Assembly (NCBI GenBank): GCA_014896535.1
Contig: JADBKE010000007.1
Location: forward strand, 4,358-68,357
Direction of reading: 5' to 3'
DNA: 64,000 nucleotides
From: Candidatus Fermentithermobacillaceae bacterium
GTDB lineage: Bacteria > Bacillota > Sulfobacillia > Fermentithermobacillales > DUSS01
The first letter of the stretch is position 1. Each line of letters opens with the position of its first letter. Positions 28,140 through 60,355 of the stretch are shown in pieces. A program made the translations under genes and the position numbers. A model generated the notes under the pieces. The model ran no database searches. It was not told the DNA's origin and worked only from the letters and a program-made list of their open reading frames with translations.

Positions 28140-28142
28140 ATC

Positions 28143-43116: not shown

Positions 43117-43291
43117 AATGGTCCCTCCCGATTTCGGCCACCAACGGCCTCCGTAGCCCGACCAGCATAGGCCTCAGCGGACAGCCGGTTTAACCGAACC
43201 GGCGCCGCAGGCTGACTCAAACCTCCCTGCAATCGCCGCAGCGTAGACAAGGCTCATCACCAGGCAGACCGGCCCGGTCCCTGTACCGAGA

Positions 43292-44005: not shown

Positions 44006-44276
44006 AGCCGTTTACGCTCAGCTCCTTCTTTAATCTGATGTCCTTCTCACAAATCACGTACATCTGGATGTTGCCCTCCGTGTCGCCCAGGATACGGCGG
44101 AATTTCAGCATCATCTCCTCCCTGCGATTTCTGTCAGTCAGCCCAAAAAATGCGCTGTACTGAACTCGCTCGAGCCCGTAGTCCTTGCAGACCTCGGCGA
44201 TCCGCCGTCTCACCTTGTCCTCAACGATGTCGTAGATGACCAGCGTACACACCATCATTCCCCGACCACTCCTCAC
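43959..44276 (-). CDS. cas2: Cas2
   Basis: MMVCTLVIYDIVEDKVRRRIAEVCKDYGLERVQYSAF, about 100 aa. Lies immediately downstream of cas1. Confidence 0.85.
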   Translation of the reverse strand: MRSGRGMMVCTLVIYDIVEDKVRRRIAEVCKDYGLERVQYSAFFGLTDRNRREEMMLKFRRILGDTEGNIQMYVICEKDIRLKKELSVNGYDPYRSEELRTRAAG

Positions 44277-44282
44277 CAGCTT

Positions 44283-45284
44283 TCACCACGTGGACAAATA
44301 GGGCTTGTACTGTCCCTCTCCCCGAAGATAGCTGGCCAGGCGCCGGGCCTGAGCCAGGACTATACCTTCCAGTTTCTGCTTCTTGCCCGAATACCTGTCC
44401 CGGAGTGCGAGTCGCTCGAGTACAATGCCGGCGATGTGACGCCGGGACTCCTGGGTCAATGCGTTGTCCTCATCGAAATCCGGTCTCCACCCCTTGATGA
44501 AGGACACGATGACGCTGCGGTCCACGACCGGTGCGCGGAATTCCTCCACCATGTCCAGGACCAGGCTAGGTTTGCCGGGCCTGTCCACATGAAGGAAACC
44601 GCCAAATGGCTCGAGACCTGCAAGCACCAAGGCACCCCAAACCTGCGTGTATAGAATGCCGTACCCGTAGTTCAGAGAGGCGTTGAACGGGTCCGTCGCG
44701 CCCCTGTGCTCACGGCCCTTGAAGTCGTCGCCTGCGGCCAGAGGACCAACGATGTCCCAGTACAAGCTCGCCGCTCGTCCCTCGAGGTTCATCAAGTAAG
44801 GCCTGACTTGGTCCACGTGGTCTCCGTCGATTTCGTCCGCTTCCTTTTCGAGCTTTTCCATTTCGGCAGCAGCGTCCATCATCTTCTGGTAAGATTCGGT
44901 CCCGGTTCTGTGCTTGGCGAAATACTTGATGAGGCTGGCCTGGTTTGCGATCTTACCTTTGACAAAACATCGTGCGAGGTAGACTCCGCGTTTGTCGTCA
45001 TACGCCTTGAGCTGTTCTCGTCTGGTCTGGACCGTGCCGTTAAGTTCGGGGGACGTAACCAGGGCATACGGCTTCCCGGTGGGTGTAAGGAAGTTCATGG
45101 GGATCCCGAACTCAATACAGCTCGCCAGCGCGTCGGTGGAAACTGTAACGCCTCGTGACGCGATGGTCACCTGCTCCAGGTCCCTGAGCGGAACTTCCTG
45201 GATTATCTTCCCTTTCGATGAAATCGTCAGCCGCTCTGACTTCTTCCCTATGAACACGCCAAAATCCGAAACAACCAGATGCAT
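44283..45284 (-). CDS. cas1: Cas1 integrase
   Basis: 333 aa with Cas1 fold markers (LYWDIVG, ATDPFNASLNYGYGIL, ...EEFRAPVVDR). Confidence 0.9.
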   Translation of the reverse strand: MHLVVSDFGVFIGKKSERLTISSKGKIIQEVPLRDLEQVTIASRGVTVSTDALASCIEFGIPMNFLTPTGKPYALVTSPELNGTVQTRREQLKAYDDKRGVYLARCFVKGKIANQASLIKYFAKHRTGTESYQKMMDAAAEMEKLEKEADEIDGDHVDQVRPYLMNLEGRAASLYWDIVGPLAAGDDFKGREHRGATDPFNASLNYGYGILYTQVWGALVLAGLEPFGGFLHVDRPGKPSLVLDMVEEFRAPVVDRSVIVSFIKGWRPDFDEDNALTQESRRHIAGIVLERLALRDRYSGKKQKLEGIVLAQARRLASYLRGEGQYKPYLSTW

Positions 45285-45399
45285 GGCGAATCAACCCCCA
45301 GGTACGATTGTGATCCGGTGCCACCATTCGCCAGTGCTCTGCTAACCATTCCCGCTAACATGCACCGATCGACACATCCCCTCCCGACTTCGGAAGCGG

Positions 45400-45560
45400 A
45401 TTCCAAAGGGGTGGCAATAGTTAATTTCGTGAAAATGGCGGAAATAATTTAGTGTCGTGGAATTAAGGTAAGTTTCAAGAGGCAATTAGAGAAGCATATG
45501 TTTCTAGGCAAGCTTGTGCCTGAATAGTAAGGAATCAACCGTCGCACGAGGTGTAGGACC
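45400..45560 (-). promoter_or_regulatory. AT-rich candidate promoter upstream of cas1-cas2-cas4
   Basis: A locally AT-rich stretch (tagttaatttcgtgaaaatggcggaaataatttagtg...) in an otherwise GC-rich intergenic gap between the cas3 fragment and cas1. Confidence 0.3.
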
Positions 45561-45598
45561 CTATCGTCAGGACCATATCGTCTACTTTTCTCTCCGAC

Positions 45599-46228
45599 CT
45601 ACGCTTCCAACCCGTATTCTGCCGAGTACGGTACGTCGACAACCGCCGGCCACCGGTACTTTGACAGTAACCGTCGCTTTTCGTTGGCTTTAAGCCAAGT
45701 CCATGGGACGGGCACCAGAAGCTCCGCCGCTTGAAACGGGTTGGTCTCGCGCGCTTCGAAGTACTCATCACAATAGCTACTGGGAATTACCTCCGTTCCG
45801 TCAAACATCTCATCAAAGGTTTCCTCAAGTCCCTCGATACTGCTAAACGGATACAAACTGTCCAGACATTCTCTTCTGAAGTACATTTGCGCTTTCCGAT
45901 ACTTTTCCTCCCACTCCTCTAGCGGCTCACCAGTGTATACTTCATCAAGCCACATTTCTATGGACCGCTCGTCGATATCTTTGCCGTCGGCATACTTTCC
46001 CAAGACCGAGAGAGTCTGCGCCACGAGCGATGAAAGATAGACCCCCTGGCCATCCGCCGGTTGCCTGCATACGTACACAGGCGCCTTATCAACTCTTCGT
46101 AACCCATTGACTCTGCCAAACCGCTGAACAAGAGCTTCCAAAGGTGCCGGGTCGGTGAACAACACGTCCAAATCTGTGTGGAAACTCAGTTCCGCCCACC
46201 AGCTAAGCCGGGAACCTTTTGTAACCAT
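45599..46228 (-). pseudogene. Cas3-like helicase C-terminal fragment (motif VI + C-terminal domain), probable remnant
   Basis: 209 aa. VQRFGRVNGLRRVDKAPVYVCRQ resembles helicase motif VI and the LQRAGRCARF...VYVYNV region of the full cas3 at 50028-52556. No Walker A/B part is present upstream. Confidence 0.45.
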
Positions 46229-46381
46229 CTAGGTTTCCTCGACGACCAGCTCATGCACCCCAGAAGGCTGACCTAATGTTTTCCCGCGAAGCTGTTCGAA
46301 ACAGCCCGCGAAAGGCCACATTGCCGACGTCTGGAGGTGGCCCGCTCCAGCTACCCACTCGTCCGCTGTCAACCGTCAACC

Positions 46382-47098
46382 CTATATGCGCTCGTAATAG
46401 CTGAAACTCCGGCTGGAGCGGACCAGGCGATATGGCAAGATCACGCTTTCGCGGATCCGGTCCCTGCCTAGACGAATATCCCTATCGCTGTAGGTATTCA
46501 CCTTTTCGAACGTAAGCTCCGGACCCCAATCATCAAGCACCTGAATGATACCGAGCTTGAATGAGGTTGCCACTTGACTGCCAATTTGAGTGCCAGTCGC
46601 AGATATCCCCCTTAGCACCACAAACCCCGCCGGAAGTTCGGTAGTTCGTTCCCCCGCACTGAGCAACTGGAAGAAACTACCTCGCTTACCAAAATAACTG
46701 ATCTGGGGAAGCAGCGCTTCCAACTCGTCAAGGACAACCTCTTCCCCTCTAAAACCCAATCCAAGATTCCCCATCAGGTACGCATACTCCCGAAAGGCAA
46801 TAGTGGATTGCATTGCCCCTTCGCGCTCGGCCTCAGCACGCCGCGGCTTGCGTACCTTGGCAAACAGGTTAGTAACCACCACCCGCTCTGGAACAAGCGC
46901 AGCAATCGCGACAGTTTTCAGCATTCGGAAAAATCTCGGCGCCACCTGTAGCCCTTGCGTCCGTATGGCGGCATCCAACAGCGCCGTGCGAATAGCGAAG
47001 GGTGTTGGCAGGAACACGGTTTTGGCCCCCGTAGATGTGGCCGGTCCCGCCTTGAGGGAAAAGAGCCCTACTGGTCGGTAGTACGCGATAAGCCACAT
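46382..47098 (-). CDS. cas5: Cas5 (type I)
   Basis: MWLIAYYRPVGLFSLKAGPATSTGAKTVFLPTPFAIRTALLDAAI is a Cas5 N-terminal signature. Follows cas7. Confidence 0.6.
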   Translation of the reverse strand: MWLIAYYRPVGLFSLKAGPATSTGAKTVFLPTPFAIRTALLDAAIRTQGLQVAPRFFRMLKTVAIAALVPERVVVTNLFAKVRKPRRAEAEREGAMQSTIAFREYAYLMGNLGLGFRGEEVVLDELEALLPQISYFGKRGSFFQLLSAGERTTELPAGFVVLRGISATGTQIGSQVATSFKLGIIQVLDDWGPELTFEKVNTYSDRDIRLGRDRIRESVILPYRLVRSSRSFSYYERI

Positions 47099-47108
47099 GG
47101 GATTACCC

Positions 47109-48191
47109 TCACTTGGCGAACAGCGTGTAAGGCTGGGTCTCCGCGATGAGGTGCTGCATGATTTCTGTAAAGCGACCCAGAGAGTCAAACTCGTAAACTA
47201 TCACGGCACTCTCGCGCACCCTGTTTAGGGTAGTTGCCACGCGCTTAAGCTCGTCCGCGTAGGCGTCCTCAAGAGGGCTGAGAGTTGGGGCTGGTACTAC
47301 TTGGGTGCTTACCGTTACGACTCCCTCGAAGCCCAGAATATGAGGATTCTGGGTACTGCGCATGGCCCCGCTCGGCTCTATGAATGTGTAGAGCACACTT
47401 TCTAGCAGCGCTTTGTAACGCTGCTCCCGCTGTTCCTTCTCTATGCTGTAGGTTTGGCTGATGTCGTTAAAACCGATACGCGCTACCTCAAAAGTCGCTA
47501 CTGTCGCGTATACACCCGAACTGGCAGGTCGGTGGAAGATGGGTTGGGTCACCCGTTCTTCGCCTTCGGCTCGCTCGCCTCGTTCGGTCGCATACCGGAC
47601 ATGAAAGTAGCTTTCGGTGCGAGTGATCTCAGGCAGCCCAATCACCCAACCAAACTCGGCTACGGATTTGCGGGGAATAGAACGTGCAGGAATTCGTTCT
47701 CTGCGCTCGGCCTCACTGTCTACCTTTTCAGCCCCCTCTGAAGCTCTGACCGACTCGCGCTCAGGAGCAATAAGAACGCCCTCAAGATCATCAAGTGTGC
47801 AGGTCTTAAGGAGCTCATCAATGACTTCGCTATCCCTGAACTTCCATCGGTTGCCATCTCGCTTGCCCACAACGTTCCTCATGAACTCTTTGTCGTCTAG
47901 TATGCGGCTCGCGCTGAATTTCTGACAACCGCCGCAGAGAGGAAGCTTGCCCTTGGCTAGGAGATATAGGTGCTCCGCCTGAATGTGCTTGAACATGTCG
48001 CCGGAGATTGCGTTTACGGAGGCCAGGCGAGGCTGGCCCGTGTGGCGGTCTTCGTAAACAATGTTGACCATCCGCGTGGTGATCTGGTTCCCTTCACCAC
48101 CCTCATTGTTTAGGGAGTGCATGTCCAAAGTTACACGGCCAGAGATAGAAAATGAGTAAACTGAGATCGCCATCAGAATACCTCCTCTCAC
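47109..48191 (-). CDS. cas7: Cas7 (type I, Csa2/Csh2-like)
   Basis: SISGRVTLDMHSLNNEGGEGNQ near the N-terminus, an internal zinc-finger-like LCGGCQKF, about 360 aa. Confidence 0.75.
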   Translation of the reverse strand: MRGGILMAISVYSFSISGRVTLDMHSLNNEGGEGNQITTRMVNIVYEDRHTGQPRLASVNAISGDMFKHIQAEHLYLLAKGKLPLCGGCQKFSASRILDDKEFMRNVVGKRDGNRWKFRDSEVIDELLKTCTLDDLEGVLIAPERESVRASEGAEKVDSEAERRERIPARSIPRKSVAEFGWVIGLPEITRTESYFHVRYATERGERAEGEERVTQPIFHRPASSGVYATVATFEVARIGFNDISQTYSIEKEQREQRYKALLESVLYTFIEPSGAMRSTQNPHILGFEGVVTVSTQVVPAPTLSPLEDAYADELKRVATTLNRVRESAVIVYEFDSLGRFTEIMQHLIAETQPYTLFAK

Positions 48192-48195
48192 GTTG

Positions 48196-49986
48196 TCATT
48201 CGGTGCCGGTTTCGTTAGCTAGCCCACCCGACTCTGCATCTTCTCGCGGCTCACGGGCATATCCGTAGGCTACCAGGAGATTAGCCACAACCTCCGGCCC
48301 ATACTCATCCACGAGGCTGACCACTGCTTCGATGTCGGTAGTTCGAAGGTCACGCCGCATCTGTTGTTTGTGCCTCTCCAGCACCTGACTGTTCTCCTGG
48401 TTGTAGCTCTGCATGAAGTCAGCCAAGGCAGCCACAAAGTCATCTCGGACGGTTGCCTTGCGCTTGAGCTCCATGCCCAACCCGTATCGGATATCATACA
48501 GAACGTGCTCGCCCCGGGCTTTGCGGCCCTGCGGGATAACCGTACTATGCCGTATTGCACGGGCCACGTTCTGAAATCCGGGGTTTTCGATGATCCGAGT
48601 TAGAGGTTTGCTTGTTGTCATAACCAACCTCCTAAGAGATGTGGTAGTGAACAAGGGAACCCATCGTTGTCCCTGCGCCATTCGGCTCATAGCATAATGG
48701 GCATAGCCAGCGGCGAACTCAAAGAAATCGTCCCAACGCTGGCTCGACAGGAAATCCCGGTAGCGGAGCAGCAGATGATAGCCGTCGCTGCGTGTTTCGT
48801 CAATGCTGTCGATCACCTCCCGGTGCTCGCGGATAACCTTCCGCAAGTTGAGAACTTCCTGGCGACTACGAAGGTCACCCGTCCAGAGTGGAAGGCCAAG
48901 AAAGGCCAGGTTGATAGCTGTGAAGGCGTTCCGACTCAGCAGCTTATATTGGACGACGTGAAAGCCGGCCACCACATGCTCCGGTCCGTAGCCCTCGAAG
49001 TTTAGCTCATCGTACTGGCCAGCTTCACTGTATTCCAGTAAGGTGTCGGTGTAGAGCAGGGCCGCAACGCAGTCCATCTTTACCGCGGTCTCGTTCCATA
49101 GACGCTTGGAAAAAGTTTTGAACACCGCTTGATGCGTAGCAAGCGTTACGTTCAGAGGGGCCAACACGTACGTTTTCCGGTCTGTGCTACCTTCCACAAC
49201 CCGCGGTGCGCTACACAACCATAAGCCGGCGGCTTTGAGATACTCGAGTAGCCAGAACGAACCAATGTTTTTTCCCATGGATAGGGCGTTAGCCTTCGCT
49301 TGGTTTTGGCCCTTGCCCTGATGCGGATTTAGAAGCTGGATAGCAGTCAACTTGTCCGTTACTCCGGGCACCTTCACCGTACGGCGCCAATTACGCGCTA
49401 TGGTTTCTAGATCGGCATGTTGTGTCGCGGTCATACGCAGGATGGTTTCCAGGTTGAAGGTGAAATACTCTCGCGTGAGAGCCCATTGAGTAACGGCCTG
49501 GTTGTAGGTTTTCAACGCTTGCATCTGCGGAGTGCCCAGGAAGGTGACCACCGCCCAATCATAGGGGGGTTCCGCATCTTCCACCTGACGCTTGAAATCG
49601 TCAGTCATCTCCGAGACTCTGCGCAGCTTCTCCCGCACTGCTTGGTAATTACGGTACTGTTCCCAAGTTTCACCCACGTTTCGGACTCGTACGCCTGCCG
49701 GTGCAGACTCCGTCTGCCCCGTTGTAATATAGGCAGGCGGCCCCGCAAAGTAAGTACAGTTCCTAACCCATTCAGCCCGTAACGGCTCTTCCAATGTGAC
49801 GGTATAGTACGGTCCCGTGTCTCGGATCCACACTCGGCGGCGGCTTTCTCGTCCCAACGCCTGAGCCAGGATCTCATCGAGGACCGCTGCCAAACCGTAG
49901 GCTACCAGCACGTCGGCAAAGGTACCACTAGTCTTTTCCGCAAAGTAAACTGCCTGGTACATGGCACGCCTCCCTTCAACCCCCAC
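48196..49986 (-). CDS. Cas8-family large subunit (type I, subfamily unassigned)
   Basis: 596-aa ORF between cas3 and cas7 in the canonical large-subunit position. No HD or polymerase motifs. Confidence 0.5.
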   Translation of the reverse strand: MGVEGRRAMYQAVYFAEKTSGTFADVLVAYGLAAVLDEILAQALGRESRRRVWIRDTGPYYTVTLEEPLRAEWVRNCTYFAGPPAYITTGQTESAPAGVRVRNVGETWEQYRNYQAVREKLRRVSEMTDDFKRQVEDAEPPYDWAVVTFLGTPQMQALKTYNQAVTQWALTREYFTFNLETILRMTATQHADLETIARNWRRTVKVPGVTDKLTAIQLLNPHQGKGQNQAKANALSMGKNIGSFWLLEYLKAAGLWLCSAPRVVEGSTDRKTYVLAPLNVTLATHQAVFKTFSKRLWNETAVKMDCVAALLYTDTLLEYSEAGQYDELNFEGYGPEHVVAGFHVVQYKLLSRNAFTAINLAFLGLPLWTGDLRSRQEVLNLRKVIREHREVIDSIDETRSDGYHLLLRYRDFLSSQRWDDFFEFAAGYAHYAMSRMAQGQRWVPLFTTTSLRRLVMTTSKPLTRIIENPGFQNVARAIRHSTVIPQGRKARGEHVLYDIRYGLGMELKRKATVRDDFVAALADFMQSYNQENSQVLERHKQQMRRDLRTTDIEAVVSLVDEYGPEVVANLLVAYGYAREPREDAESGGLANETGTE

Positions 49987-50027
49987 CTTTTTGTCCCTCT
50001 AAGTCATACCCCGGCTCTTGCGTGACA

Positions 50028-52556
50028 TCAGCAACGAACAAAAGGACTATCTATCTTCTTGCTATCTTCTTGCGATTTCCCATCCGCCAACCGCAACGCT
50101 CGCACAATTAGGAAATAAGCCAGCCACCATGCATGCGGATCGTCCGGTGGCAAGCGCAGGATGTGGTTTTCCAGCTTTGTCGCTGGCGCCTGGGGCAACC
50201 AATCTCCTGCTGCGCTGCCATCCAGCCCTGCTGCTTCCAGTGCTTCTTTGAGCGCAACTCGAGCACTGCGATTTAACCGATAGTCCCCGAAAGTCCCTGC
50301 CTGCGCACTATGATGCCGCGCCACCGCAGTGATCACAGCTCGGCGCAATCCTTCGTTACCTTCCAGTACCTTGTGAGCGATCTTCGCTCCGGCTATAGCT
50401 CCTTCCCCTGCATGCGGTGGGCGGCGGCTTTTCATTCGAAGCGCGACTGCCTCATGTTCGGGCGTTTCCATGTGTACGTGGACCGCCATGAAGGTTTCAT
50501 CGTCCAAGCGTTCCCCGATCTCCGCCTGGTAGGCTCGCACCCAGGCCTGCCAGCGCTCATCTAACTTGCCTAGGTCGTGGAGCGCGATAGCTAGCCGTAT
50601 CGCCCGATCAATCCCGCTGGCCGGGAAGCCGGCCTTTTTCTCCAATCGAGCTGCGGCATAGGCCAGTCGGTTGACCAAGTCACGTTGGTAAACGCGTACC
50701 ATGGACCGGACATGGTCGGCGTAGGTCTCGAGTCGGTACGTGTAGTTCTCTTGCCGCTTCTTCCTCTGCTGGTCCGGTTCTGTACGGTAGCCCCCACCAT
50801 CCTCAGTGAAGCGAAAACCCAGGCACTCATCGTAGGCCACGAGCGCTGGATGAACGACGAAGAGAAAGGCCGCTCCAATATCGCCCTCGGAGTGCACGGG
50901 CAACCACCGGTAGCGCGTCGGCACCCGGGCATCTTCTTCTGCCTCCGCTTCTACCGGATATTTCAGTGCCCAGTCCAGTCCTTTCGCCTTTCGCCACGCT
51001 TCCAATTCCTCCAGTTTAGCGCGCAGCGTGCCATGCCAGAGAGAGAAACCGGTACAGCCGAACGGGTTCTCCAGGCCCTCTGGGTTGTCGTGAACTAGAA
51101 CGGTCCGGCTGTCTACCTTGCGGATCAGTTGGCGGCGCACCGAAAGGTCGTTCAGCGCCATTGCCCGACCTATCATCGCCCAGATCTGGCCTTCCTCCTG
51201 CACCATCTCCTCCAGTAACCGTCGGTCCGTCGCAGTATGGACATAGTCAATCACTTCCTGCTCACCACGGAAGTCCAAAGCCTCTCCGTCCCGTTCCCAA
51301 AAGGCCATCCAAGAACTTTGACACAGCTCTGCCTCTTCTTTGCCGATATAAGGCGCATAGTTGGGCTTACCCTGTTTATCTGGCGGCACGTTGTAAACGT
51401 ACACGTCCCCATTCTCCCCTGGAAACCGGGCGCACCGGCCCGCCCGCTGCAAGATGCTGGCCGCCGGAGCCACCTCGGTATGCAGCGCCTGGCAGGTAAT
51501 GTCAAGCCCTACCTCGATGACCTGAGTTGCCACCAAGATCAAATCCTTTGCTGACCATGCTTCTTTGTCCTTGCCGAACTCCCGACGCACTCGCTCTTCC
51601 TTAGCGTTCCGGTGCTCGTGGGTGAAACGGCTGTGCAGCAGGATCACCCGTTCTCTACCGATTCGGTCGCAAAGTTCCGCGTAGAGCTGCTGCGCTCGTT
51701 CCACTGTGTTACAGATGGCAATGGAGCGACGATCGTGGTATCGAAGCACGGAGTCGGCCGTCAGCAGGCCATCGATAGCGTGAAACCGACGTACTTTTCC
51801 TCGCTGCGAAGGAATGTGCGACAGTTCGTGAGATGAGACAGTAACCACCTCAGCACCGAGCAGGCTCTTCAGCTCGCCGAGCATGGTTGACGAGAAAGTG
51901 GCTGTCATCAGGACGAAAGGAGTTACGTCCTTCAGCAGGCGCAACACTTGCAGAGTGGTCTTTAGCGCACCCTCGGGCGGGAAAAGGTGGAACTCGTCAA
52001 AGACTAGATATGACCCAATCACTGCTCCTGCGTTTAGGTTGGCGCGGCTAGAGCTCAATGCGTAGGGAACTCCCAGGATATTACTGAGAGTCTGATCAAT
52101 GGTAGTGAAGATCAAATCACCTTCCATCGTCGGATCGCCGGGTCGATCGCTCGTCTGAATCGTCACCCCTTTTTCCAACTTGAAGCCATCCAGATGACTG
52201 TAGGACTTTACGACCTCGGCATATTCCACCGCGAATTGGTTCGCAAGCACCTGCATCGGTACAGAGTAAATGCACTGGCGCGGGAAGCATCCTGGGGCAG
52301 GTTCTGCCAAGTGATAGAGAAATGGAAACAAAGCAGCCCGCGTCTTGCCGGCCCCGGTAGGTGCTTGCAAAACCACATTGTAGCCATGGGTCAAAGCCTC
52401 AAAAGTGCGCTGCTGAAAGGGAAATAGCTGCATGATGTACCCCCAAACACATGCCGAAAGCAGGCGTTCATGCCACCAGGACCACTTTCCAATGTCCAAG
52501 TTCGCAAAAAGAACCAGGAAACAGGACGAAAGAGCGTCTTCATCCTTTGTATCCAA
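50028..52556 (-). CDS. cas3: Cas3 helicase-nuclease with C-terminal HD domain
   Basis: Helicase motifs APTGAGKT, VFDEFH and QRAGRCAR, with HD motifs at the C-terminus (ADHVRS, LHDLGK, ...ARHH). Likely start is the internal Met MQLFPFQQ (~52433). Confidence 0.85.
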   Translation of the reverse strand: MDTKDEDALSSCFLVLFANLDIGKWSWWHERLLSACVWGYIMQLFPFQQRTFEALTHGYNVVLQAPTGAGKTRAALFPFLYHLAEPAPGCFPRQCIYSVPMQVLANQFAVEYAEVVKSYSHLDGFKLEKGVTIQTSDRPGDPTMEGDLIFTTIDQTLSNILGVPYALSSSRANLNAGAVIGSYLVFDEFHLFPPEGALKTTLQVLRLLKDVTPFVLMTATFSSTMLGELKSLLGAEVVTVSSHELSHIPSQRGKVRRFHAIDGLLTADSVLRYHDRRSIAICNTVERAQQLYAELCDRIGRERVILLHSRFTHEHRNAKEERVRREFGKDKEAWSAKDLILVATQVIEVGLDITCQALHTEVAPAASILQRAGRCARFPGENGDVYVYNVPPDKQGKPNYAPYIGKEEAELCQSSWMAFWERDGEALDFRGEQEVIDYVHTATDRRLLEEMVQEEGQIWAMIGRAMALNDLSVRRQLIRKVDSRTVLVHDNPEGLENPFGCTGFSLWHGTLRAKLEELEAWRKAKGLDWALKYPVEAEAEEDARVPTRYRWLPVHSEGDIGAAFLFVVHPALVAYDECLGFRFTEDGGGYRTEPDQQRKKRQENYTYRLETYADHVRSMVRVYQRDLVNRLAYAAARLEKKAGFPASGIDRAIRLAIALHDLGKLDERWQAWVRAYQAEIGERLDDETFMAVHVHMETPEHEAVALRMKSRRPPHAGEGAIAGAKIAHKVLEGNEGLRRAVITAVARHHSAQAGTFGDYRLNRSARVALKEALEAAGLDGSAAGDWLPQAPATKLENHILRLPPDDPHAWWLAYFLIVRALRLADGKSQEDSKKIDSPFVRC

Positions 52557-53176
52557 TCAAGTAACGGTTAGGACCTGGCACCTGCTCGATTTTTTGCTAA
52601 CACCCCAACAGCCAGGGTATGTACCCTTCGAAACACCGCATAGATCTGACTATACGAGCTATATCTTCTTCACGATTGTCCTCAATTCCTCTATTGTAAG
52701 GACTCGCCAACTTTCGTCTGCTGGATGGAGTGTTAGACAACCCTCAGTCAGTAGTTATGAAGCACTTCTCCAAGCTCGCACCGGTCCCGATCAACCTCTC
52801 GGTCACAGATCATTCCGGCCAGCCGCCAGAGTTTTCACTCTATAGGGATCTACGTCATCCACGCGACCCTGGTACACATTGAAGCCCCTGGAGCAAACCT
52901 TCCGAGACAAACATATCCCGTTGCTCACAAGAAGAAGCAGTGCCCCAAGTGCTATATATCTGTTCATCGCTTCGTCTCCAATGGCGTTGGGGTCTCTGGT
53001 GCCTTTAAACCACTAGTTGCCAGCCACGTTACCGCTTTCGAACAAAACAACCGGTCGCCCACTCGCCCGCCCTCGCTGCAGTTGTCACATGCGCCATTCC
53101 GCTCGATCTGGGGCCTGACCAGAACACCCCACAAGACCACTCGACCACCATCAAAATGGTCGTTGGGTGTCAAATC

Positions 53177-55126
53177 CTACCCCACCATCCTCAACCTGCA
53201 CCTCGCCGGATCTATCGCCGTCAGAATAGGCCTCAACATATGCGCGAAACTTACCACGGCCTGCCCCGGGGCCAGGGTAGGCAGCTTCCGCCACATAGAC
53301 GCGTCAACCCCAGCGATGACGCGGTTCAGCTCATCGATGACCCCGGTATCGGTGATCTTGTGGAGTATGAAGTTGTTTACCAGCCCCAAAATCTCCCGCG
53401 GTAAATGCTGAGGAAGCTGGCTCACGAAAACCAGCCCCAGCCATCTCTTCCTTCCGCGCCGGGCGATTCTGGCCACCTGCTGGAACACGTTGGGCATCTG
53501 CGATATCCGGTCTTTGCTCAGGAATTCGTGAGCTTCCTCGATGATAACCAGGGTTCTCCGGGGAGGTATGCTTTGCTCCGTAACGTGTCGTCCCGTGGAG
53601 CGGGGAGCACCCCGAAGTACCGCCGGGCTAGCCCCTGCTGCTGAACTACCTTCTGCCCGACTCTCCCTCTGCCCCTCCTGATACGCCTTGTCCTGCGCCT
53701 CGAGAATGCCGCGCAGGATGTCGCTGATGACAAGGTTATTCAAGATAGGAGAGTTCGTATCGGACAGGTCTATGATGCTCACCCGGCCAGGCTCGGTGAG
53801 GGCCGAGTAATCGATGGGTTCGGCCGCGGGATTGTCGAAGACTCTGGGCCGGTGGATTTTCCACAGCTTTGATAAAAGTGCCCGCCAGCTAGAAGGGTGA
53901 TCCGCTTTGACCGCGGCCACCGCCGCCATCAGCGCGTCCCGGTTTTCTCTCAGCAAAGGACTGTACGGAACGAAGGTATCCGGCGTCTTTGAAACCTGCG
54001 CGAGAAATGCCCCGGCCACGTCGGTCAACAGCGAAAGCGTCATCCCCGGATACCCCCGCTCCATTTCGTCGATTTCCATAGCGGCCGCTTCGTCTTCCGC
54101 CCCTCGCGGGAATACCCTCAAGGAAGCCAGGAGCGTTTTCAGAACATCATAGGCCTGGAAAAACCTCATTTCCTGAGGCTCGCTGAGGCCCATGATTTCG
54201 CACACTGTGTACGGGGACAGGTTCGAAAAACTGAGACAAAACTGCCGGCGGTCCGGATGCGAGGGGTTCATGGTCTCTCTTCCGACGAGGTGGTACAGGG
54301 TCGTGTTAGCCACTCCTTCGGGGGAAAGGCCTCTCGCCCTCAACGCCGCCAGCATGCCCGGGTCGGTCGCAGGGTCGCATATGGCGGTATACTCTCCCTC
54401 TACGTCCAGGATGACCACGGCCATCCCGGCCTTTTGAGCCTGCATGACCAGTGTGCCGATAGTGGTCGACTTTCCCGACCCGGTGGTTCCGAGGACAGCC
54501 GTGTGCCTCGGGAAAACGTCCTTCCGGTCGCTCGGGACCGAAACGGTCATTTCATAACCGACGCAGCGACCCAGCGCGATGTCGCCTTCGGCCTTCAAGA
54601 TCCGCCGCGCCTCATCCTCTTTCAGGAGGAACACCGGGCTGTTGGGCCTGGGCCTCCATCTCGGTGGGGTAAGATGCCCGTCGTTTTCTTCCCCGAGGAT
54701 CTCCACTTCGACGCGACCGTGATAGTTCGGGATAAATGTTGCGCCCCTCGCAGCGGTGGTCACCATCAGCGGGGTATCCCCTCTGATGCCGTCTGGCTCG
54801 GCGAAGGGTCCCGCCGTCACCACTCCCACGTACGATCTACCGTCTTCGAGGCTCTTGATCCTGACCAGGGATTGCGACGGGACGTTGCCAAGTTCTCTCT
54901 TGGGCAGGATGACGCAGACCGTGTTGTCCCGGCTTTCTTTCGTGTCAAAGAGGGTCCGGCCCACACAGCCCCTGTACGCCTCCGGCTCCTCCCAGCCCTG
55001 CTCATCTTCGAGGTCTTCGAATACCGGCGGCATCTCTCCGCCCAGCCTGGTGCTGTCGTCCAGCGCCATCGCCCTCACCTCGTTAGCAGCGTTTAGCCCG
55101 CCCGTAACCGCGTCGCCCGGACGCAA
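53177..55126 (-). CDS. HerA-like DUF87 ATPase (FtsK/HerA superfamily)
   Basis: 649 aa with an N-terminal HAS-barrel-like region, Walker A LGTTGSGKST, Walker B VVILDVEGEY and a late LVIIEEAHEF motif. Confidence 0.6.
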   Translation of the reverse strand: MRPGDAVTGGLNAANEVRAMALDDSTRLGGEMPPVFEDLEDEQGWEEPEAYRGCVGRTLFDTKESRDNTVCVILPKRELGNVPSQSLVRIKSLEDGRSYVGVVTAGPFAEPDGIRGDTPLMVTTAARGATFIPNYHGRVEVEILGEENDGHLTPPRWRPRPNSPVFLLKEDEARRILKAEGDIALGRCVGYEMTVSVPSDRKDVFPRHTAVLGTTGSGKSTTIGTLVMQAQKAGMAVVILDVEGEYTAICDPATDPGMLAALRARGLSPEGVANTTLYHLVGRETMNPSHPDRRQFCLSFSNLSPYTVCEIMGLSEPQEMRFFQAYDVLKTLLASLRVFPRGAEDEAAAMEIDEMERGYPGMTLSLLTDVAGAFLAQVSKTPDTFVPYSPLLRENRDALMAAVAAVKADHPSSWRALLSKLWKIHRPRVFDNPAAEPIDYSALTEPGRVSIIDLSDTNSPILNNLVISDILRGILEAQDKAYQEGQRESRAEGSSAAGASPAVLRGAPRSTGRHVTEQSIPPRRTLVIIEEAHEFLSKDRISQMPNVFQQVARIARRGRKRWLGLVFVSQLPQHLPREILGLVNNFILHKITDTGVIDELNRVIAGVDASMWRKLPTLAPGQAVVSFAHMLRPILTAIDPARCRLRMVG

Positions 55127-55227
55127 AATGTGGTAAGCGGTACAATCGTTACCCCATCACCAATCCCGAGTTAGCTTGTAACCGGTGTGCCGGCTGTTTG
55201 GACCGGCCACCTTTTAACCCGCCTCTT

Positions 55228-56670
55228 TCAATCCGGCCACGTCATCTCCCCCGCATCGAGATAGGCCATCCTGATGGAATCCAGGAGCACCTCCGAGGCG
55301 AAAGTGGTCCTGCATATGTTGGCCGCCAGGTCGAGCAGAGTCGGGAATCCTTTGTGCTCCTGCAGGGATGAGTCGGCCATAGCGATGAGCGCAGCTTCAT
55401 GAGGGTGTGACGCGGGCGCGTAAAACACCCTGGACCTCGAGTACCGTGAAACCCTGTAAACGCCTATGACGATGGCCGGACCCACCTGAGCTGCGAAATC
55501 TTCCAACAACGCCCTTTGCTTGCGCGGATATCTCCTGCTCCGGAGGATGCGCTCTATCTGTCCCTCCGCGGTGTCCACGATGGCGTATTCCATGGGCGCG
55601 AGCGCGTCACCGATGGTGTTGAGAAAGCGCATTCCGCCCCCGGAAGGCACGAAGACGAATTTTTTGTGGTCGAGGCACAAGCGTAACAGGTATTCCAGTG
55701 ACCGCTCGAAAAACTCCGGGCTGCCGCAGCCGGTCAAAAGCTCCACCGGGATCACGGGGCCGTGACCCATCCGCCACTCCGCCCTGGAGCGATCCACGAG
55801 TATGGCCCTTTCGGCGAAAGCCATGATCCCCCTCCTGGCCAGGTCGGAGAGCCCGCGTTGCACGGCATCCGATTCCCCGGAAAACCTGCGTTCGAGAAGG
55901 GTCATGGCTTCTTGCACCGCGTCTGCAGGCCTGAACCTCAAGTCGCGCCGGAAGAGCCGGTGCACCCAACTGCCCTGGTCCCCCCTGTACGAAACGAGAC
56001 ACACCCCTACTTCCACGACATCCAGAGATAGCCCCTCATGGGCGACGGTGATGCCGTCGCACGCCTCCACCCTGCCGGGAAACAGGACCTTTTTGTGACA
56101 CATCTCCAGCCGGTCTAGCGGAACTTTATACACTCCGGCGCTGGCGGGTGCGCCCGGCCTTTCGGCGAGCCTGGGGAAGACGAGTTCTCGGACCTGACGT
56201 CTCGTCCTGCGCTCCTGCTCTACCGCATCGCGAACTTCCTTCTCCAGTCTTTCGTAGAGCGCCCCGAGGTCGAACCCGGTGGACCACGTGTCCAGGTTCA
56301 GGGTGGCGTTCATATCCTCACCGAACGCCTCCGCGTAAGCTTCGGCCGTCACCGCTCCAAGGGGCACGTCCGCGCCTGCAAGGGTCAAATCCCCCGGTCC
56401 AACCGCTTCTACCTCTACGGGTTCTGCGGGTTCTACGGCTTCTACGTGGACGATTTCGCCGTCGAGAACACCCGCGCTCGAAACCGCGAAGTCGCGAGCC
56501 GGGACATCCAAATCGCCGGACTTTCGCGGAGTCCCGTGACTTGCGCGCTCAAATCTCCCAGCCCCGGCCACATCTCCCGGCTGGCCGAGTTCATCCTTCT
56601 GCTCCGTCACATTCATACCCCCCGATCCTCGCTCGCCCATGTCGATCGCACCTGCACCGTAAGCCCTCAA
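55228..56670 (-). CDS. NurA-like nuclease partner of HerA (tentative)
   Basis: 480-aa ORF immediately upstream of HerA on the same strand, the usual nurA-herA arrangement. The acidic N-terminal low-complexity region and an EACDGIT motif only loosely match NurA. Confidence 0.35.
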   Translation of the reverse strand: MRAYGAGAIDMGERGSGGMNVTEQKDELGQPGDVAGAGRFERASHGTPRKSGDLDVPARDFAVSSAGVLDGEIVHVEAVEPAEPVEVEAVGPGDLTLAGADVPLGAVTAEAYAEAFGEDMNATLNLDTWSTGFDLGALYERLEKEVRDAVEQERRTRRQVRELVFPRLAERPGAPASAGVYKVPLDRLEMCHKKVLFPGRVEACDGITVAHEGLSLDVVEVGVCLVSYRGDQGSWVHRLFRRDLRFRPADAVQEAMTLLERRFSGESDAVQRGLSDLARRGIMAFAERAILVDRSRAEWRMGHGPVIPVELLTGCGSPEFFERSLEYLLRLCLDHKKFVFVPSGGGMRFLNTIGDALAPMEYAIVDTAEGQIERILRSRRYPRKQRALLEDFAAQVGPAIVIGVYRVSRYSRSRVFYAPASHPHEAALIAMADSSLQEHKGFPTLLDLAANICRTTFASEVLLDSIRMAYLDAGEMTWPD

Positions 56671-56752
56671 GACGCCGGGCTTCCCACCCAGCCGTCTCCG
56701 CTCACTCGCGGCGACTTAACCAGAAGCGCGATCAGGCTGCCCCGGCTATGTA

Positions 56753-56936
56753 ACTCTGTGACTCTATGACTCTATGACTCTGTGACTCTGTGACTCTGTG
56801 ACTCTGTGACTCTGTGACTCTGTGATTCTGTGATTCTGTGATTCTGTGATTCTGTGATCCTGTGATTCTGTGACTCTGTGATTCTGTGACTCTGTGACTC
56901 CGTAACTCTGTGACCCCGCAACTTTGTAACTTTGTA
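56753..56936. repeat. 8-bp tandem repeat (GACTCTGT/GATTCTGT)n, ~23 units
   Basis: Direct reading of 56753-56936. Lies in the gap between the ImmA-like gene end (56940) and the NurA-like gene start (56670). Confidence 0.9.
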
Positions 56937-56939
56937 TCC

Positions 56940-57863
56940 TCATAGCTCCCCTACCTTCGCAGAACCCGGGCCTTCCAGCCATTCCCTGAAAAGTCCGCGA
57001 GAACCGGCCGGTCGTACTTTGGTTTTCAGGTAGCCCGCGTACCACCGCGCCACACCCGCCGGCAATCCGTACTTGCTCACCAGAATGCTGGCGATCTCGG
57101 CGCATGAAGTGCGTACGGAAAACACAGCCGAAACTGTTTTTCCATTCGACCGGTAAAGCACTCCTCTCCCTTCGAGCATTTCTCCCTCTTCGCCCTGCAT
57201 GCTATCGGCAACCGCCCCAAACACCTCTCCAAGCACTCGCCGGGCCGGCGCCAGGAGTTCTAAGGCCAGCATATCCGCCCTGTTTTCCGAGGATAAGCGA
57301 CGTTCACGAGGCGTGGCCTTAACGTACGTGCCCAGGGGAATTCCGCACAAGAGGGCGTCCACACGCTCCTCAACATCGGGTACTCGCTCGCCGTCGAGCA
57401 CGGGGCGTATCCTCTCCCCCATCTTCGACAACGCCCGCTCACGAGGGATGAGGTAATCCGCGAGAAAGTGGGAAACTTCGTGGGCGATGGTAAACGAGGC
57501 TTCGTCCGCGGGTAGACCCTTCTCAAGAAAGATTATGCCTGCACCTTTTGACGCCACAAGACAGCCGTAAAGAGGAGAAAAGACGTATTGCTCGAGCTCT
57601 TCCGCGCGCCCGCTCGAAGGAAAGTAGGCGGCCACCGCGGAGCCGGTCAAGCCCGAAATCCACACCACACCCACGGGCAACGTCCAGATGCACGCGCTGA
57701 AGATGTCTCTCGGGAAGGTCTCAGGGAGTCCGGAAAGACGCCAGAAAGCTTCGGCTATCTCTTCGTACGTCTGACCGAGCTCATGCCATTTGAAGCTCTC
57801 CATCAGGGTGCCTCCCGGCAGGTGGTTATACCTTCGGCGTTGGCAAACTTCTCGGGGTTCCAC
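56940..57863 (-). CDS. ImmA/IrrE family metallo-endopeptidase
   Basis: HExxH motif in context FTIAHEVSHFLADY, about 300 aa. An HTH gene lies immediately upstream. Confidence 0.55.
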   Translation of the reverse strand: MEPREVCQRRRYNHLPGGTLMESFKWHELGQTYEEIAEAFWRLSGLPETFPRDIFSACIWTLPVGVVWISGLTGSAVAAYFPSSGRAEELEQYVFSPLYGCLVASKGAGIIFLEKGLPADEASFTIAHEVSHFLADYLIPRERALSKMGERIRPVLDGERVPDVEERVDALLCGIPLGTYVKATPRERRLSSENRADMLALELLAPARRVLGEVFGAVADSMQGEEGEMLEGRGVLYRSNGKTVSAVFSVRTSCAEIASILVSKYGLPAGVARWYAGYLKTKVRPAGSRGLFREWLEGPGSAKVGEL

Positions 57864-57873
57864 CGTTTACGAC

Positions 57874-58299
57874 TCAATCGGTTCGTTTGTCGGGTTTCTC
57901 GCCGGTTTGCTCTTCTGTGGGGTTGGTTTGCATCGCAGGTGCCCTCGCCGCCACGACCCCACCAGCAGCCACTCTATCCCAGTACGCCACCACATTGAGC
58001 AAGTTCGCCAGGGCGGTCTCACGGGCACCCGTGTACAGAGCGCAATCGCGGACATCTCTTTTGAACTCCGGCGTTCCGACCTCCGGCCGCCCGCACAACG
58101 CCAAGCGGAGAAAGTTAACACCCGAGCACCCGAGATACTCTTCGAGTTCTTCCTGCGTAATACGCTGGATATCCATGTACCGTCCGAGCGCGTAGGCCAT
58201 GAAAGACGATTGCCGTCGGGCTTTTTCCGCGAGAGCTTTCATGAGATTTATGGTCCCCTCCGAGGGACTATCCATCGGAGCTCCCCTTCCATTTCGCAT
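57874..58299 (-). CDS. HTH (XRE-like) regulator partner of ImmA-like protease (tentative)
   Basis: LGRYMDIQRITQEELEEYLGCSGVNFLRLALCGRP resembles an XRE helix-turn-helix. Confidence 0.4.
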   Translation of the reverse strand: MRNGRGAPMDSPSEGTINLMKALAEKARRQSSFMAYALGRYMDIQRITQEELEEYLGCSGVNFLRLALCGRPEVGTPEFKRDVRDCALYTGARETALANLLNVVAYWDRVAAGGVVAARAPAMQTNPTEEQTGEKPDKRTD

Positions 58300-58996
58300 A
58301 TATCCGGACGAGTTTTCGCTTGAGCAGCGTTTTCCTCCGCTTCACTTCTCTGCGCATACCCGCGGGATCAGCACGCTCTATATGCCATATTCTCGCATAT
58401 TCTGCGTACGATTTGATGCCCGCCAGCATCAGCCTTATTGCAGTCTGGTCATCTGCAGAGAAGTTCCGTCTGATCTCGTCCCAGAGCTCCGTGTCCGCTC
58501 CTTCGTAAAGATCTTTCCGAGGATTCGTGTCAAATTCACCATGGCGGTCCAGAATCTCTTTCCGGCCTCGATTGTTCCTCTTTTCAAGGAGGTTGAGGAG
58601 GTCCCCGTTCGCCGACATGACCAAGTACGAAGGCAAACTCCTCTTGGAAGGGTCAAACCGCTCGGGATGCAGCAGGTAATTCATCAGCGCCTCCGTCGTG
58701 GCATCCGTCAGGAGTTCGTCGTCCACTCCCGGCTTGAGGCTCTTCAACACGCGCTTTACGTATTCCATGTATCGCTCCGCTACCGAGGCCCAGGCAACTT
58801 TATCCCCGGCGAGGACGGCCTGGTGGAGCACAAGCCAGTCGTCCATGCCGGGTTGCGCAAGGATGTCGCCGGAGCCGGTTTCGCCGCTTAAAATTCCCGC
58901 CGCCGGTCCATCGCTGTTGGACTGTTCGTCTTGCCCTTGCCCTTGAAATCCATTTCCGAAACGGTCTTCCGCCATGAGAGGGTCCCGGCCTTTCAA
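58268..58996 (-). CDS. sigma-70 family (ECF-like) RNA polymerase sigma factor (tentative)
   Basis: Region-2-like pattern AGDKVAWASVAERYMEYVKRV...TDATTEALMNYLLHPERFDPSKRSLPSYLVMSANGDLLNLLEKR and a region-4-like C-terminus. Confidence 0.45.
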   Translation of the reverse strand: MKGRDPLMAEDRFGNGFQGQGQDEQSNSDGPAAGILSGETGSGDILAQPGMDDWLVLHQAVLAGDKVAWASVAERYMEYVKRVLKSLKPGVDDELLTDATTEALMNYLLHPERFDPSKRSLPSYLVMSANGDLLNLLEKRNNRGRKEILDRHGEFDTNPRKDLYEGADTELWDEIRRNFSADDQTAIRLMLAGIKSYAEYARIWHIERADPAGMRREVKRRKTLLKRKLVRIYAKWKGSSDG

Positions 58997-59326
58997 CCAA
59001 TCCTGGTCCCTTTTTCAAACTCCCTCGAATGGGCACCGTAGCCTCGGCCGACGAGACTTCGAACTTGCTTCGTTCCTCTTTCGCCACAGCAGTCAAGACT
59101 GGCTCCAACGATCAAACGCGGTTAAAGGCACGCAAAGGCCACGTTAGGAGCCGAAGTTGACTGCCAGGTCCCAGCCTTCCTGGTAACAGAGGATATATTC
59201 GCTAGAAAAGCGCTTGTTCCTGCACGGTTGGTCGTTCCTGCCACACCCTGAGGGACTTGCTCCTGGAACTTCCAACGCCGAGTTGCCACGCCGACGAATC
59301 GCCGCCTTGAAGACCCGGGGACCATC

Positions 59327-60355
59327 TCACGCCTTCGGCGTTTTCCTGGACAGCTCCGCCATCTTGCCGAGAAATCTCAATACGGCCCTGAGAATCGCAG
59401 CTCCAGGAACCGCCAGAAAGAAGCCCCAAAACCCGAAGTAGTGGCCGCCGATGAGAAGGGCCGCGATGACCGCCAGAGGGTGAAGACCCACCCGCTTCCC
59501 GGTCACCCTCGGCACGATGAGCGCAGAATCGATTTGCTGAATGATGAGTACCGCGATGAGAGTTTTTAGCCCGGTGACAGGTGATTTTGTGAGCCCGACG
59601 ACGATCATCGGGATGGCGGCTGCGATGGGTCCGAAATACGGTATGAACTCGCCAAGTCCGGCGATGACTCCCAGGATTGCTCCGTAGTGAAGGTCCAGGA
59701 TGGCGGCGGCCACCCACACCATCACCGCGACCGCAACAGCCACGACCGCCTGTCCCCGCACAAAACCACCCAGCACCATATCGGTTTCGTGGAAAAGCTC
59801 GAGGTACGGGTCGGGAAGTCTCGACAACCGGACGAGGACGGCTTTTCTCCACGAGTTGATGTCTTTGAGGATGTAGTATCCGACGACCGGCGCCAGGAGT
59901 ATCTTGGTTACCGCCTCGGCGGACGCCGCCACGTTGCGCAGGATGTTCCCGGCAAAAGCCTCTGCGCCAGCCCAAAGCTCGTCCAGACTCTGCAGAAACG
60001 ACTGCTCGACCCCCTGCGGGATGCCGTACCTCCGGCAAATCTCTCGCAAACGCCCGCGAAGCCCGGTAAGCATATCGCTGTACCGGGGAACGGCGGATGC
60101 CAGCTCCTGCACGTCTCGCAAGAAGTTGGGCACGAAGTAGGCTGCCATAAGTCCCATTACAATCGCGATGGCCAGGTAGGTGAGTACGATCGCCTGAGTC
60201 CGCTTCATCCTGCGGGACAGGTAACTCACCGCGGGCTCGAGGACGTAACTCAAAAAGCCACCGAGCAAGAACGGCAATATCACAGGCCTCGCGAGGAACG
60301 CCAGAAGGAAAACGCCGGCCAAGGCGAGGACTATTCGGAAAACTTTCTTTGCCAT
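59327..60355 (-). CDS. AI-2E family transporter (PerM/UPF0118)
   Basis: 342 aa with 8 TM segments and a family-typical N-terminus and spacing. The overlapping 404-aa ORF in another frame was rejected. Confidence 0.8.
   Translation of the reverse strand: MAKKVFRIVLALAGVFLLAFLARPVILPFLLGGFLSYVLEPAVSYLSRRMKRTQAIVLTYLAIAIVMGLMAAYFVPNFLRDVQELASAVPRYSDMLTGLRGRLREICRRYGIPQGVEQSFLQSLDELWAGAEAFAGNILRNVAASAEAVTKILLAPVVGYYILKDINSWRKAVLVRLSRLPDPYLELFHETDMVLGGFVRGQAVVAVAVAVMVWVAAAILDLHYGAILGVIAGLGEFIPYFGPIAAAIPMIVVGLTKSPVTGLKTLIAVLIIQQIDSALIVPRVTGKRVGLHPLAVIAALLIGGHYFGFWGFFLAVPGAAILRAVLRFLGKMAELSRKTPKA

Follow-up and report, generated by a model that had tools for sequence, protein, structure and literature searches.

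A block of five genes at positions 53177–58996 of a 64-kb stretch of DNA from Candidatus Fermentithermobacillaceae bacterium (assembly GCA_014896535.1, contig JADBKE010000007.1, positions 4,358–68,357; hereafter the window, meaning this whole stretch) almost certainly forms a single co-regulated cassette. All five open reading frames (ORFs) were confirmed on the minus strand, directly upstream of a cas3 gene, and in 5'→3' order they encode an extracytoplasmic function (ECF)-like sigma factor, a small regulator, an ImmA-like metallopeptidase, a NurA-like nuclease and a HerA-type ATPase, followed by cas3. We read the region as a self-contained, horizontally transferred cassette, most likely an inducible restriction-like system destroying invading DNA, an assignment we put somewhat above an even call; that the cassette functions in defence we consider probable. 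It is apparently undescribed: a full-text literature search, its coverage of the literature being incomplete, found no description of it.

The cassette was recognised as a unit through its relatives. The nuclease alignment was scanned against one genome per species (185,579 species), which yielded 187 relatives (~0.1% of species) in more than 15 phyla; the best 80 of the 187 loci were fetched, and the window's five proteins were searched against all of their ORFs. Sigma factor, ImmA-like protein, nuclease and HerA were all present in 71 of the 80 loci, 65 of which also had the small protein, and the remaining nine lie mostly on short or truncated contigs. The gene order of the window is kept in 70 of the 71 complete loci, a grouping far beyond chance, and the nuclease gene is followed directly by HerA both in the window and in practically all loci that no contig end truncates. 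Among the carriers are Planctomycetota, several classes of Chloroflexota, Acidobacteriota, Cyanobacteria, Actinomycetota, Nitrospirota, Latescibacterota, KSB1, Verrucomicrobiota, Bacteroidota, Gammaproteobacteria, Thermodesulfobacteriota, Binatia, Lindowbacteria and Firmicutes, with cultured representatives in Thermogemmatispora (T. tikiterensis T81, a complete six-gene cassette in NZ_MCIF01000002.1, 498162–519289), Agaribacillus aureus (BMA12), Jatrophihabitans lederbergiae and Planctomycetales bacterium 10988. The nearest relatives of the window are metagenome-assembled genomes (MAGs) of Candidatus Fermentithermobacillaceae, at 94% identity. Comparison of the window with the close relatives L001, L003 and L004 gave ratios of nonsynonymous to synonymous substitution rates of 0.05–0.07 for the nuclease, 0.11–0.13 for HerA and 0.16–0.23 for the regulators, and all five window genes are under purifying selection. 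Rare and scattered over phyla, the cassette reads as a horizontally transferred accessory element. Two of the fetched loci, on contigs of a 'Syntrophaceae' MAG (L025) and a 'Candidatus Babeliales' MAG (L030), do not differ in their promoter-site sequences and hardly differ in the phmmer E-values of their cassette proteins; one is probably a duplicate produced by binning or contamination, which slightly inflates the counts of lineages.

Clustering of the flanking ORFs revealed a sixth gene, an N6_N4 DNA methyltransferase, in 57 of the 80 loci, either immediately upstream on the same strand (50 loci) or convergent after HerA (7 loci). With a modification enzyme linked to the nuclease, most of these loci resemble restriction-modification in their logic. 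The window differs: no homologue of the methylase was found in the whole 64 kb, nor near the cassette in L001, L003 and L004.

The two effector genes were identified by different routes. The product of the HerA gene (53177–55126, minus strand; 649-aa ORF, alternative ATG at 55069) is unambiguously a HerA-type hexameric ATPase/translocase as judged from its sequence matches to Pfam DUF87 (PF01935; E = 7.7e-19, 69.1 bits versus a cutoff of 23.2), HerA_C (2.2e-9) and the PADLOC HerA model (8.7e-28), and its Walker A and B motifs (GTTGSGKS and LVIIEEAH) are legible in translation. Its best solved relatives are the NurA-partnered HerA proteins of Thermococcus (1.6e-20) and Sulfolobus (3e-19), with the HerA subunits of SIR2-HerA and DUF4297-HerA, and TdpA, ranking behind. 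The gene upstream of it (55228–56616, minus strand) corresponds to an ORF first listed as 480 aa; its true start is at 56616, giving a protein of 462 aa with a variable N-terminal tail and a conserved core of ~380 aa. This protein had no Pfam, NCBIfam or PADLOC match at E ≤ 0.01, and phmmer likewise returned nothing. A 64-sequence profile of the family retrieved no NurA among PDB sequences and, scanned against 1.84 billion proteins, found no bridge to canonical NurA, recovering its own family only (590 clusters at 50% identity). That family is tight, with ~50% identity across phyla and 1142 matches in one homologue search. An AlphaFold2 model of the protein was confident (predicted local distance difference test score, 87.8; predicted template modelling score, 0.84), and comparison of this model by fold gave an RNase H-like fold with the NurA-specific elaboration, confirming the predicted structure as that of a NurA-like nuclease though sequence models miss it. 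The first strand of the model's sheet carries VEACDG with an invariant D205, and E287, D433, D447 and H303 are invariant too; from their conservation, rather than from superposition on NurA, we infer that these acidic and histidine residues would fit an RNase H-type active site.

The three upstream genes are predicted regulators. The first (58268–58996, minus strand; 242-aa ORF, alternative ATG at 58975) matches Sigma70_r2 (3.8e-5) and TIGR02937 (sigma70-ECF, 3.3e-8), the latter across regions 2 and 4 (model positions 2–147 of 165), with scores slightly under the curated cutoffs (23.8 versus 24 and 33.3 versus 42.9). Sigma70_r2 is matched by 25 of 53 sigma orthologues (best 7.7e-9), the orthologue profile matches the ECF sigma factor SigE (2q1z) in PDB, and annotation by the Joint Genome Institute names the orthologues 'sigma-70 factor, ECF subfamily'; on these matches the gene product is ECF-like, with predicted region 2 and region 4 domains only. 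The third gene (56940–57863, minus strand; probable start ATG at 57803, 287 aa) encodes an ImmA/IrrE/CapP-like zinc metallopeptidase, by its profile match (PF06114, E = 1e-3) a divergent relative of Peptidase_M78, that also matches the PADLOC capP model (3.2e-5). Its H128, E129 and H132, which form the HExxH motif, and E193 are invariant in 32 orthologues, and the downstream zinc-ligand motif reads E..AD.LALELLAP, with LELLAP nearly invariant. The sole PDB matches of the orthologue profile were IrrE, an IrrE orthologue and CapP (E = 0.013–0.087).

Between the two lies the small regulator (57874–58275, minus strand; 133 aa), whose ORF extends to 58299 and whose real start at 58275 overlaps the 3' end of the sigma gene. 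The protein is 100% identical to an NCBI MAG protein and comprises a six-helix domain with an XRE-like helix-turn-helix pattern and a disordered tail with an invariant LLAAR(D)R, in which the invariant AAR motif sits. It has no family match, its fold matches are weak (among them the N-terminal domain of CapH), and neither family nor fold comparison recognised an anti-sigma domain in it; a helix-turn-helix identity is plausible and weakly supported. The small protein is fused to the sigma factor in a Planctomycetaceae genome (L002/L005, 8191–9174) and to the NurA-like nuclease in a cyanobacterial MAG of the Microcystaceae (L021, 3366–5033), where the gene order is rearranged to ImmA, sigma, the small protein-nuclease fusion and HerA. 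These two fusions tie the small protein to its neighbours, the sigma factor and the nuclease, and we propose that it is a putative substrate of the ImmA-like protease, acting as repressor or anti-sigma.

A sequence-only reading of this stretch had named a DUF87 HerA-type ATPase, an upstream NurA-like partner, an ImmA protein with an HExxH motif and a sigma-70-family ECF-like gene, all on the cas strand immediately upstream of cas3, and each of these held up, the nuclease through its fold and the proximity to cas3 with a distance of 620 bp from the end of HerA. Of its helix-turn-helix gene, the ORF and the XRE-like pattern stood, while family and fold matches gave it little further backing. That reading listed a HerA-NurA pair plus regulators; the conservation of gene neighbourhood that it had proposed to examine shows that the regulators are not unrelated to the pair, and that all five genes are inherited together as one cassette, which has a promoter motif of its own.

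In the relatives, the gap between the ImmA and nuclease genes holds a conserved bipartite motif, TGTCGAACTT-N14-GGAATA, whose second element is TGTATA in a group of mostly acidobacterial loci. A regular expression for the motif returned 93 sites on the gene strand, compared with two on the opposite strand and an average of 1.5 in shuffled sequence, and the spacer is 14 nt long in 65 of the 93. Upstream of the nuclease gene there are 43 sites, with a median distance of 80 nt between the motif start and the start codon; the sigma gene contains 33, ~330 nt from its start; and others are found upstream of sigma (5), upstream of HerA (3) and just after HerA (4). Outside the window's clade the internal sigma site reads GTCGAACTT-N14-GGGAAT and is in frame 0 in 33 of 33 cases (e.g. 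L008 8466–8492 and L024 8397–8423), with codons that are always GTC-GAA-CTT ... GGG-AAT and encode a 'VEL..GN' island in the variable sigma linker. Since codon usage predicts GTC-GAA-CTT in 2.5% of cases, the constraint on the internal site acts on the DNA. Within one locus, the internal and nuclease-gene sites agree in their -10 class (23 of 23 loci) and in their -35 variant (22 of 23), the pattern predicted for two sites recognised by one and the same co-evolving factor. The motif has a GAAC-type -35 element and is asymmetric and fixed in orientation, and these traits, together with its position, are consistent with an ECF promoter recognised by the sigma factor of the cassette itself; it is best described as a putative promoter of that type.

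The sites just after HerA suggest that the regulon sometimes extends to neighbouring conflict-type genes. In Planktothrix (L011, 13149–13175) the motif precedes an operon of a cyclic-oligonucleotide-based anti-phage signalling system (CBASS; SAVED, SMODS and ThiF), in a Nitrospirales MAG (L041, 13690–13715) a Metallophos and AAA_27 pair, and in a Terriglobales MAG (L047, 13276–13302) RmuC and AAA_13; the fourth such site (L021, 7071–7097) is upstream of a Tn7-like element. Five Chloroflexia loci (L033, L040, L043, L055 and L074) differ in layout, with a 573-aa ORF between the ImmA and nuclease genes that resembles a CBS-DHH-type protein by eye only, a 196-aa gene between the nuclease gene and HerA, and the sigma-type motif ~50 nt upstream of sigma instead.

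In the window's own clade the internal site takes the form GTGAATTT-N12-CGGAAA, which is homologous to that of the other phyla and conserved in the window, L001, L003 and L004. In the window it occupies 58513–58540 (minus strand), with the clade-specific form GGTGAATTTG-N-CGGAAAG, as placed by alignment to the internal sites of L008, L024 and L013. At the nuclease gene, L001 keeps TTGAACTC-N13-CGAACGA and the site is weaker in L004; the homologous position in the window (P_X, 56696–56726, minus strand, located by alignment with the L001 and L004 gaps) is degenerate, reading TTCTGGTT..TGAGCGG, and the site is essentially gone. A clade-specific motif search of the window returned the internal sigma site only, sigma-70 promoter and terminator scans of 52400–59400 found nothing above chance, and Rfam gave no match. 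The 324 bp that separate the ImmA stop from the nuclease start, where other genomes have the nuclease promoter, contain an 8-bp microsatellite directly after the ImmA stop (56749–56927, without strand; minus-strand GAGTCACA/GAATCACA; period 8 and 20.8 copies, or ~21, by Tandem Repeats Finder). This repeat is specific to the window genome, being absent at the same position in L001 and L004, and might change the expression of the nuclease and HerA genes or make it phase-variable. It also creates a spurious 113-aa 'HRVTESQ' repeat ORF (56764–57105).

Taken as an inducible restriction-like system, the cassette would work as follows. At rest, the small protein would silence the sigma-dependent promoters, as repressor or anti-sigma. 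A cue arising during infection, for instance single-stranded DNA or damage to DNA, would activate the ImmA-like protease, which would cleave the small protein at its invariant AA|RDR tail, with Arg at P1' as in CapH and DdrO. There are precedents for such cleavage: IrrE cleaves DdrO at L|R, and CapP, when bound to single-stranded DNA, cleaves CapH before Arg (F82|R83), a protease/repressor control of immune operons. The cassette sigma factor would then transcribe the nurA-like and herA genes, and the internal promoter would re-express the small protein and the protease, resetting the switch. The HerA hexamer would thread DNA into a dimer of the NurA-like nuclease for processive degradation, following the motor-plus-nuclease mechanism of the solved HerA-NurA and TdpAB complexes, in which HerA feeds DNA to the nuclease. 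Where the methyltransferase is present, it would mark self DNA.

Several points weigh against this interpretation. The window copy and its three close relatives have no methylase, so methylation-based discrimination of self from non-self cannot apply there, and the regular expression finds no motif match at the nuclease promoter of the window or across its clade. In principle, the bipartite motif might serve as an operator instead of a promoter. The match of the protease to Peptidase_M78, at 19.3 bits, is under the 22-bit cutoff, and the tail of the small protein beyond the putative cleavage site is short, whereas CapH and DdrO lose a dimerisation domain. Among the cassette proteins, PADLOC 2.0 models match HerA and, through capP, the protease only, which fits novelty but gives no independent support. 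Most of the cassette sequences come from MAGs. Finally, HerA-NurA canonically serves in repair, where it resects DNA ends.

This last point leads to an alternative in which the cassette is a DNA-damage-inducible repair module, the protease/repressor pair and the sigma factor switching on HerA-NurA end resection of the cell's own chromosome. The structures closest to both effector proteins are indeed the solved repair complexes of Sulfolobus, Thermococcus and Deinococcus, and for the protease the nearest solved structures are those of IrrE proteins, with the IrrE/DdrO precedent in Deinococcus; proteases of the CapP/IrrE type respond to DNA damage or single-stranded DNA, and in two loci the motif also precedes RmuC and SbcD-like genes. 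A repair module is nevertheless hard to reconcile with the occurrence of the cassette in about one species per thousand, across so many phyla at ~50% identity, as is typical of accessory genes that spread by horizontal transfer, or with the frequent linkage to a DNA methyltransferase. The neighbours of the cassette are cas, CBASS, TIR and transposase genes, and its flanks are not syntenic between lineages. We regard the repair alternative as unlikely, while giving it more weight than either of the two that follow.

Another alternative makes the genes part of a mobile element (prophage, integrative and conjugative element or transposon), with ImmA and the helix-turn-helix protein as an induction switch and HerA as an ATPase for pumping or packaging DNA. 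The control of mobile elements is a classical task of ImmA/ImmR pairs, and HerA/FtsK ATPases pump DNA in conjugation and packaging. The window HerA also has weak P-loop matches to TraG, TrwB and VirB4, three viral contigs carry the cassette, and transposases and the Tn7-like element occur near some loci. Yet those three contigs are out of 2.9 million in IMG/VR, a tblastn search with the nuclease found no match in 50,697 phage or 72,556 plasmid records, and the viral structure predictions of BFVD contain no significant fold match. No integrase, capsid, relaxase or type IV secretion system gene is conserved beside the cassette, the partner of HerA is a nuclease, and the upstream flank in the window (AI-2E transporter, RarA and aminotransferase) is housekeeping DNA syntenic with L001. 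That these genes are part of a mobile element seems very improbable to us, and the mobile-element switch put forward in the sequence-only reading finds no footing in the data. Its other suggestion, a defence module co-localised with CRISPR, fits the rare, cross-phylum and usually methylase-linked occurrence of the cassette and its cas, CBASS, TIR and transposase flanks; the outcome that it had named as its refutation did not come about, since the nuclease fold is there and the cluster is not a housekeeping one, although over 80% of copies have no CRISPR nearby.

How closely the cassette is bound to CRISPR-Cas was judged from the 64 loci with at least 1 kb of sequence after HerA. In 11 of these, cas genes or an array start no more than 1 kb after HerA, and one further locus has them 2.8 kb after it; the cas genes detected near HerA are all on the same strand, none of the 64 loci has cas genes upstream of sigma, and the lineages concerned, besides the window's own, are Chloroflexota, Planctomycetota, Acidobacteriota and Lindowbacteria. 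Downstream of the cassette, the genes met most often are Cas1, Cas4, UvrD-type helicases, Cas3, Metallophos proteins, transposases, Cas6 and ThsB-TIR. This enriched and oriented placement, with the adaptation genes Cas1 and Cas4 heading the list, speaks for a reading in which the cassette would be a CRISPR-Cas accessory module, for example one that feeds fragments of invader DNA to Cas4-Cas1-Cas2 spacer acquisition or switches on cas expression, and NurA and HerA are among the putative CRISPR auxiliary genes named by Altae-Tran et al. 2023 (PMC10910872). Co-occurrence is not consistent, however: for over 80% of cassettes, the surrounding 8–10 kb contain no cas gene. In the close relatives L001 and L003 a MatE gene follows HerA, with cas genes beyond MatE in L001, and cas genes were detected neither in L003 nor on the truncated contig of L004. 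Defence genes cluster in islands anyway, and the adjacency counts are not independent, as L061/L080, L076/L079 and L013/L060 are related pairs. A sigma-type motif was not found before any adjacent cas operon, by regular expression or by eye, and direct driving of cas genes by the cassette sigma factor was dropped on this ground. We consider an accessory role in CRISPR-Cas doubtful. The same low standing applies to the most extended proposal, a six-gene immune system with a private sigma regulon (including a promoter inside the sigma gene, and CBASS) that is functionally coupled to type I CRISPR-Cas, upstream of whose Cas4-Cas1 or Cas3 genes it repeatedly lies head-to-tail, and supplies it with fragments for spacer acquisition; as a whole we think it improbable.

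In the window, cas3 (50028–52556, minus strand) encodes a helicase with a C-terminal HD domain (Cas3-like_C_2, 7.9e-30; DEAD; Cas3_HD), the best NCBIfam model being Cas3g at 192.8 bits, below its cutoff. It opens the neighbouring type I cas operon (42136–52556, minus strand), which comprises Csa1, Cas4, Cas1, a 209-aa ORF, a 268-aa ORF, a DevR/Csa2-type Cas7, a 596-aa ORF without a family match, and Cas3; the 209-aa ORF (45599–46228) matches the C-terminal tip of Cas3 only and is possibly a remnant. The CRISPR array (29207–41658) consists of ~170 units with the 37-nt repeat CTTTCAGTCCCCTCTACATCGGGGTTCTCGCTGCAAC over 12.5 kb and accounts for the strong negative AT skew at 30–42 kb. At its far end stand two pairs of a Mu/Tn-like rve transposase and an AAA_22 ATPase (23769–26364, minus strand, and 27285–28943, plus strand), and a patch at 24–26 kb is rich in GC (0.647) and reversed in its GC skew. 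The transposase pairs and this patch suggest that the 24–59 kb stretch is an island.

Set beside known systems, the putative defence cassette shares single features with several. Like the archaeal and bacterial HerA-NurA resection complexes (Sulfolobus 2ygk/4d2i, Thermococcus 9x1l, Deinococcus 7f6d), it combines a motor with a NurA-fold nuclease, but the nuclease has no sequence-detectable relation to Pfam NurA, Mre11/Rad50 partners are lacking, the cassette adds its own sigma factor, protease, small regulator and usually a methylase, and its distribution is patchy rather than lineage-wide. The phosphorothioate-dependent restriction system TdpABC (8wet) likewise pairs a motor, the HerA-like TdpA, with a NurA-fold nuclease, the NurA-like TdpB. 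Its modification is phosphorothioation (PMC12914056). The modification enzyme of the cassette is instead the N6_N4 DNA methyltransferase, and the window copy has no modification gene. We know of no sigma, ImmA or helix-turn-helix module in Tdp systems. With the two-gene anti-phage systems SIR2-HerA and DUF4297-HerA, whose PADLOC and PDB HerA models match the window protein, the cassette has in common a HerA ATPase and an effector; here a nuclease of the NurA fold takes the place of SIR2 or the Cap4-like nuclease, and three regulators and a methylase are added. The methylation-associated defence system (MADS), an eight-gene operon beside CRISPR-Cas in Pseudomonas that was removed with a ~22 kb deletion, includes kinase and specificity subunits, with mad6, mad7 and mad8 mandatory, and resembles the cassette as a methylase-linked multi-gene defence with a HerA-like ATPase (mad8). 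Membership in MADS was rejected: the window HerA matches mad8 (8e-21), its match to mad3 is marginal and confined to the P-loop (E = 0.0088), and the other four window proteins match no mad model. Also set aside were the HerA/FtsK 'capture systems' and BREX (bacteriophage exclusion)-related systems, as neither of the Krishnan papers describing them mentions NurA or this gene set.

The regulatory half of the cassette has its own counterparts. CapH-CapP, like ImmR-ImmA and DdrO-IrrE, places an HExxH metallopeptidase beside a small helix-turn-helix-like protein upstream of an effector operon, whereas the cassette adds a dedicated sigma factor and its conserved DNA motif is promoter-like, not a palindromic operator. 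The cassette protease, at ~250 aa with a distinct N-terminal domain, has no room for the GAF domain of CapP, and beyond its putative cleavage site the small protein lacks a C-terminal dimerisation domain. CapH is cut before an Arg, and the small protein carries the invariant AAR motif. In Myxococcus, according to the available part of the published account, the ECF sigma/anti-sigma pair DdvS/DdvA controls a CBASS-CRISPR island (PMC11506125). As far as that part of the account allows comparison, the likeness lies in an ECF sigma factor dedicated to immune genes, the cassette motif also preceding the neighbouring CBASS operon in Planktothrix; the cassette differs in having no transmembrane anti-sigma, the candidate being a soluble 130-aa protein with a protease, and in that the main regulated genes are nurA-like and herA.

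If this interpretation is right, the cassette would be a multi-gene immune system that is widespread and has been missed by current finders: its nuclease has no Pfam or NCBIfam family, and PADLOC 2.0 has no model for the nuclease, the sigma factor or the small protein. It would also stand as a clear example of a defence cassette that brings along a dedicated sigma factor together with a recognisable promoter for it, which makes its regulatory logic directly testable. At the site inside the sigma gene, selection on the DNA passes for conservation of a protein motif (VEL..GN). The oriented link to CRISPR adaptation genes may in turn provide a system for asking whether nuclease-based innate defence feeds adaptive immunity.

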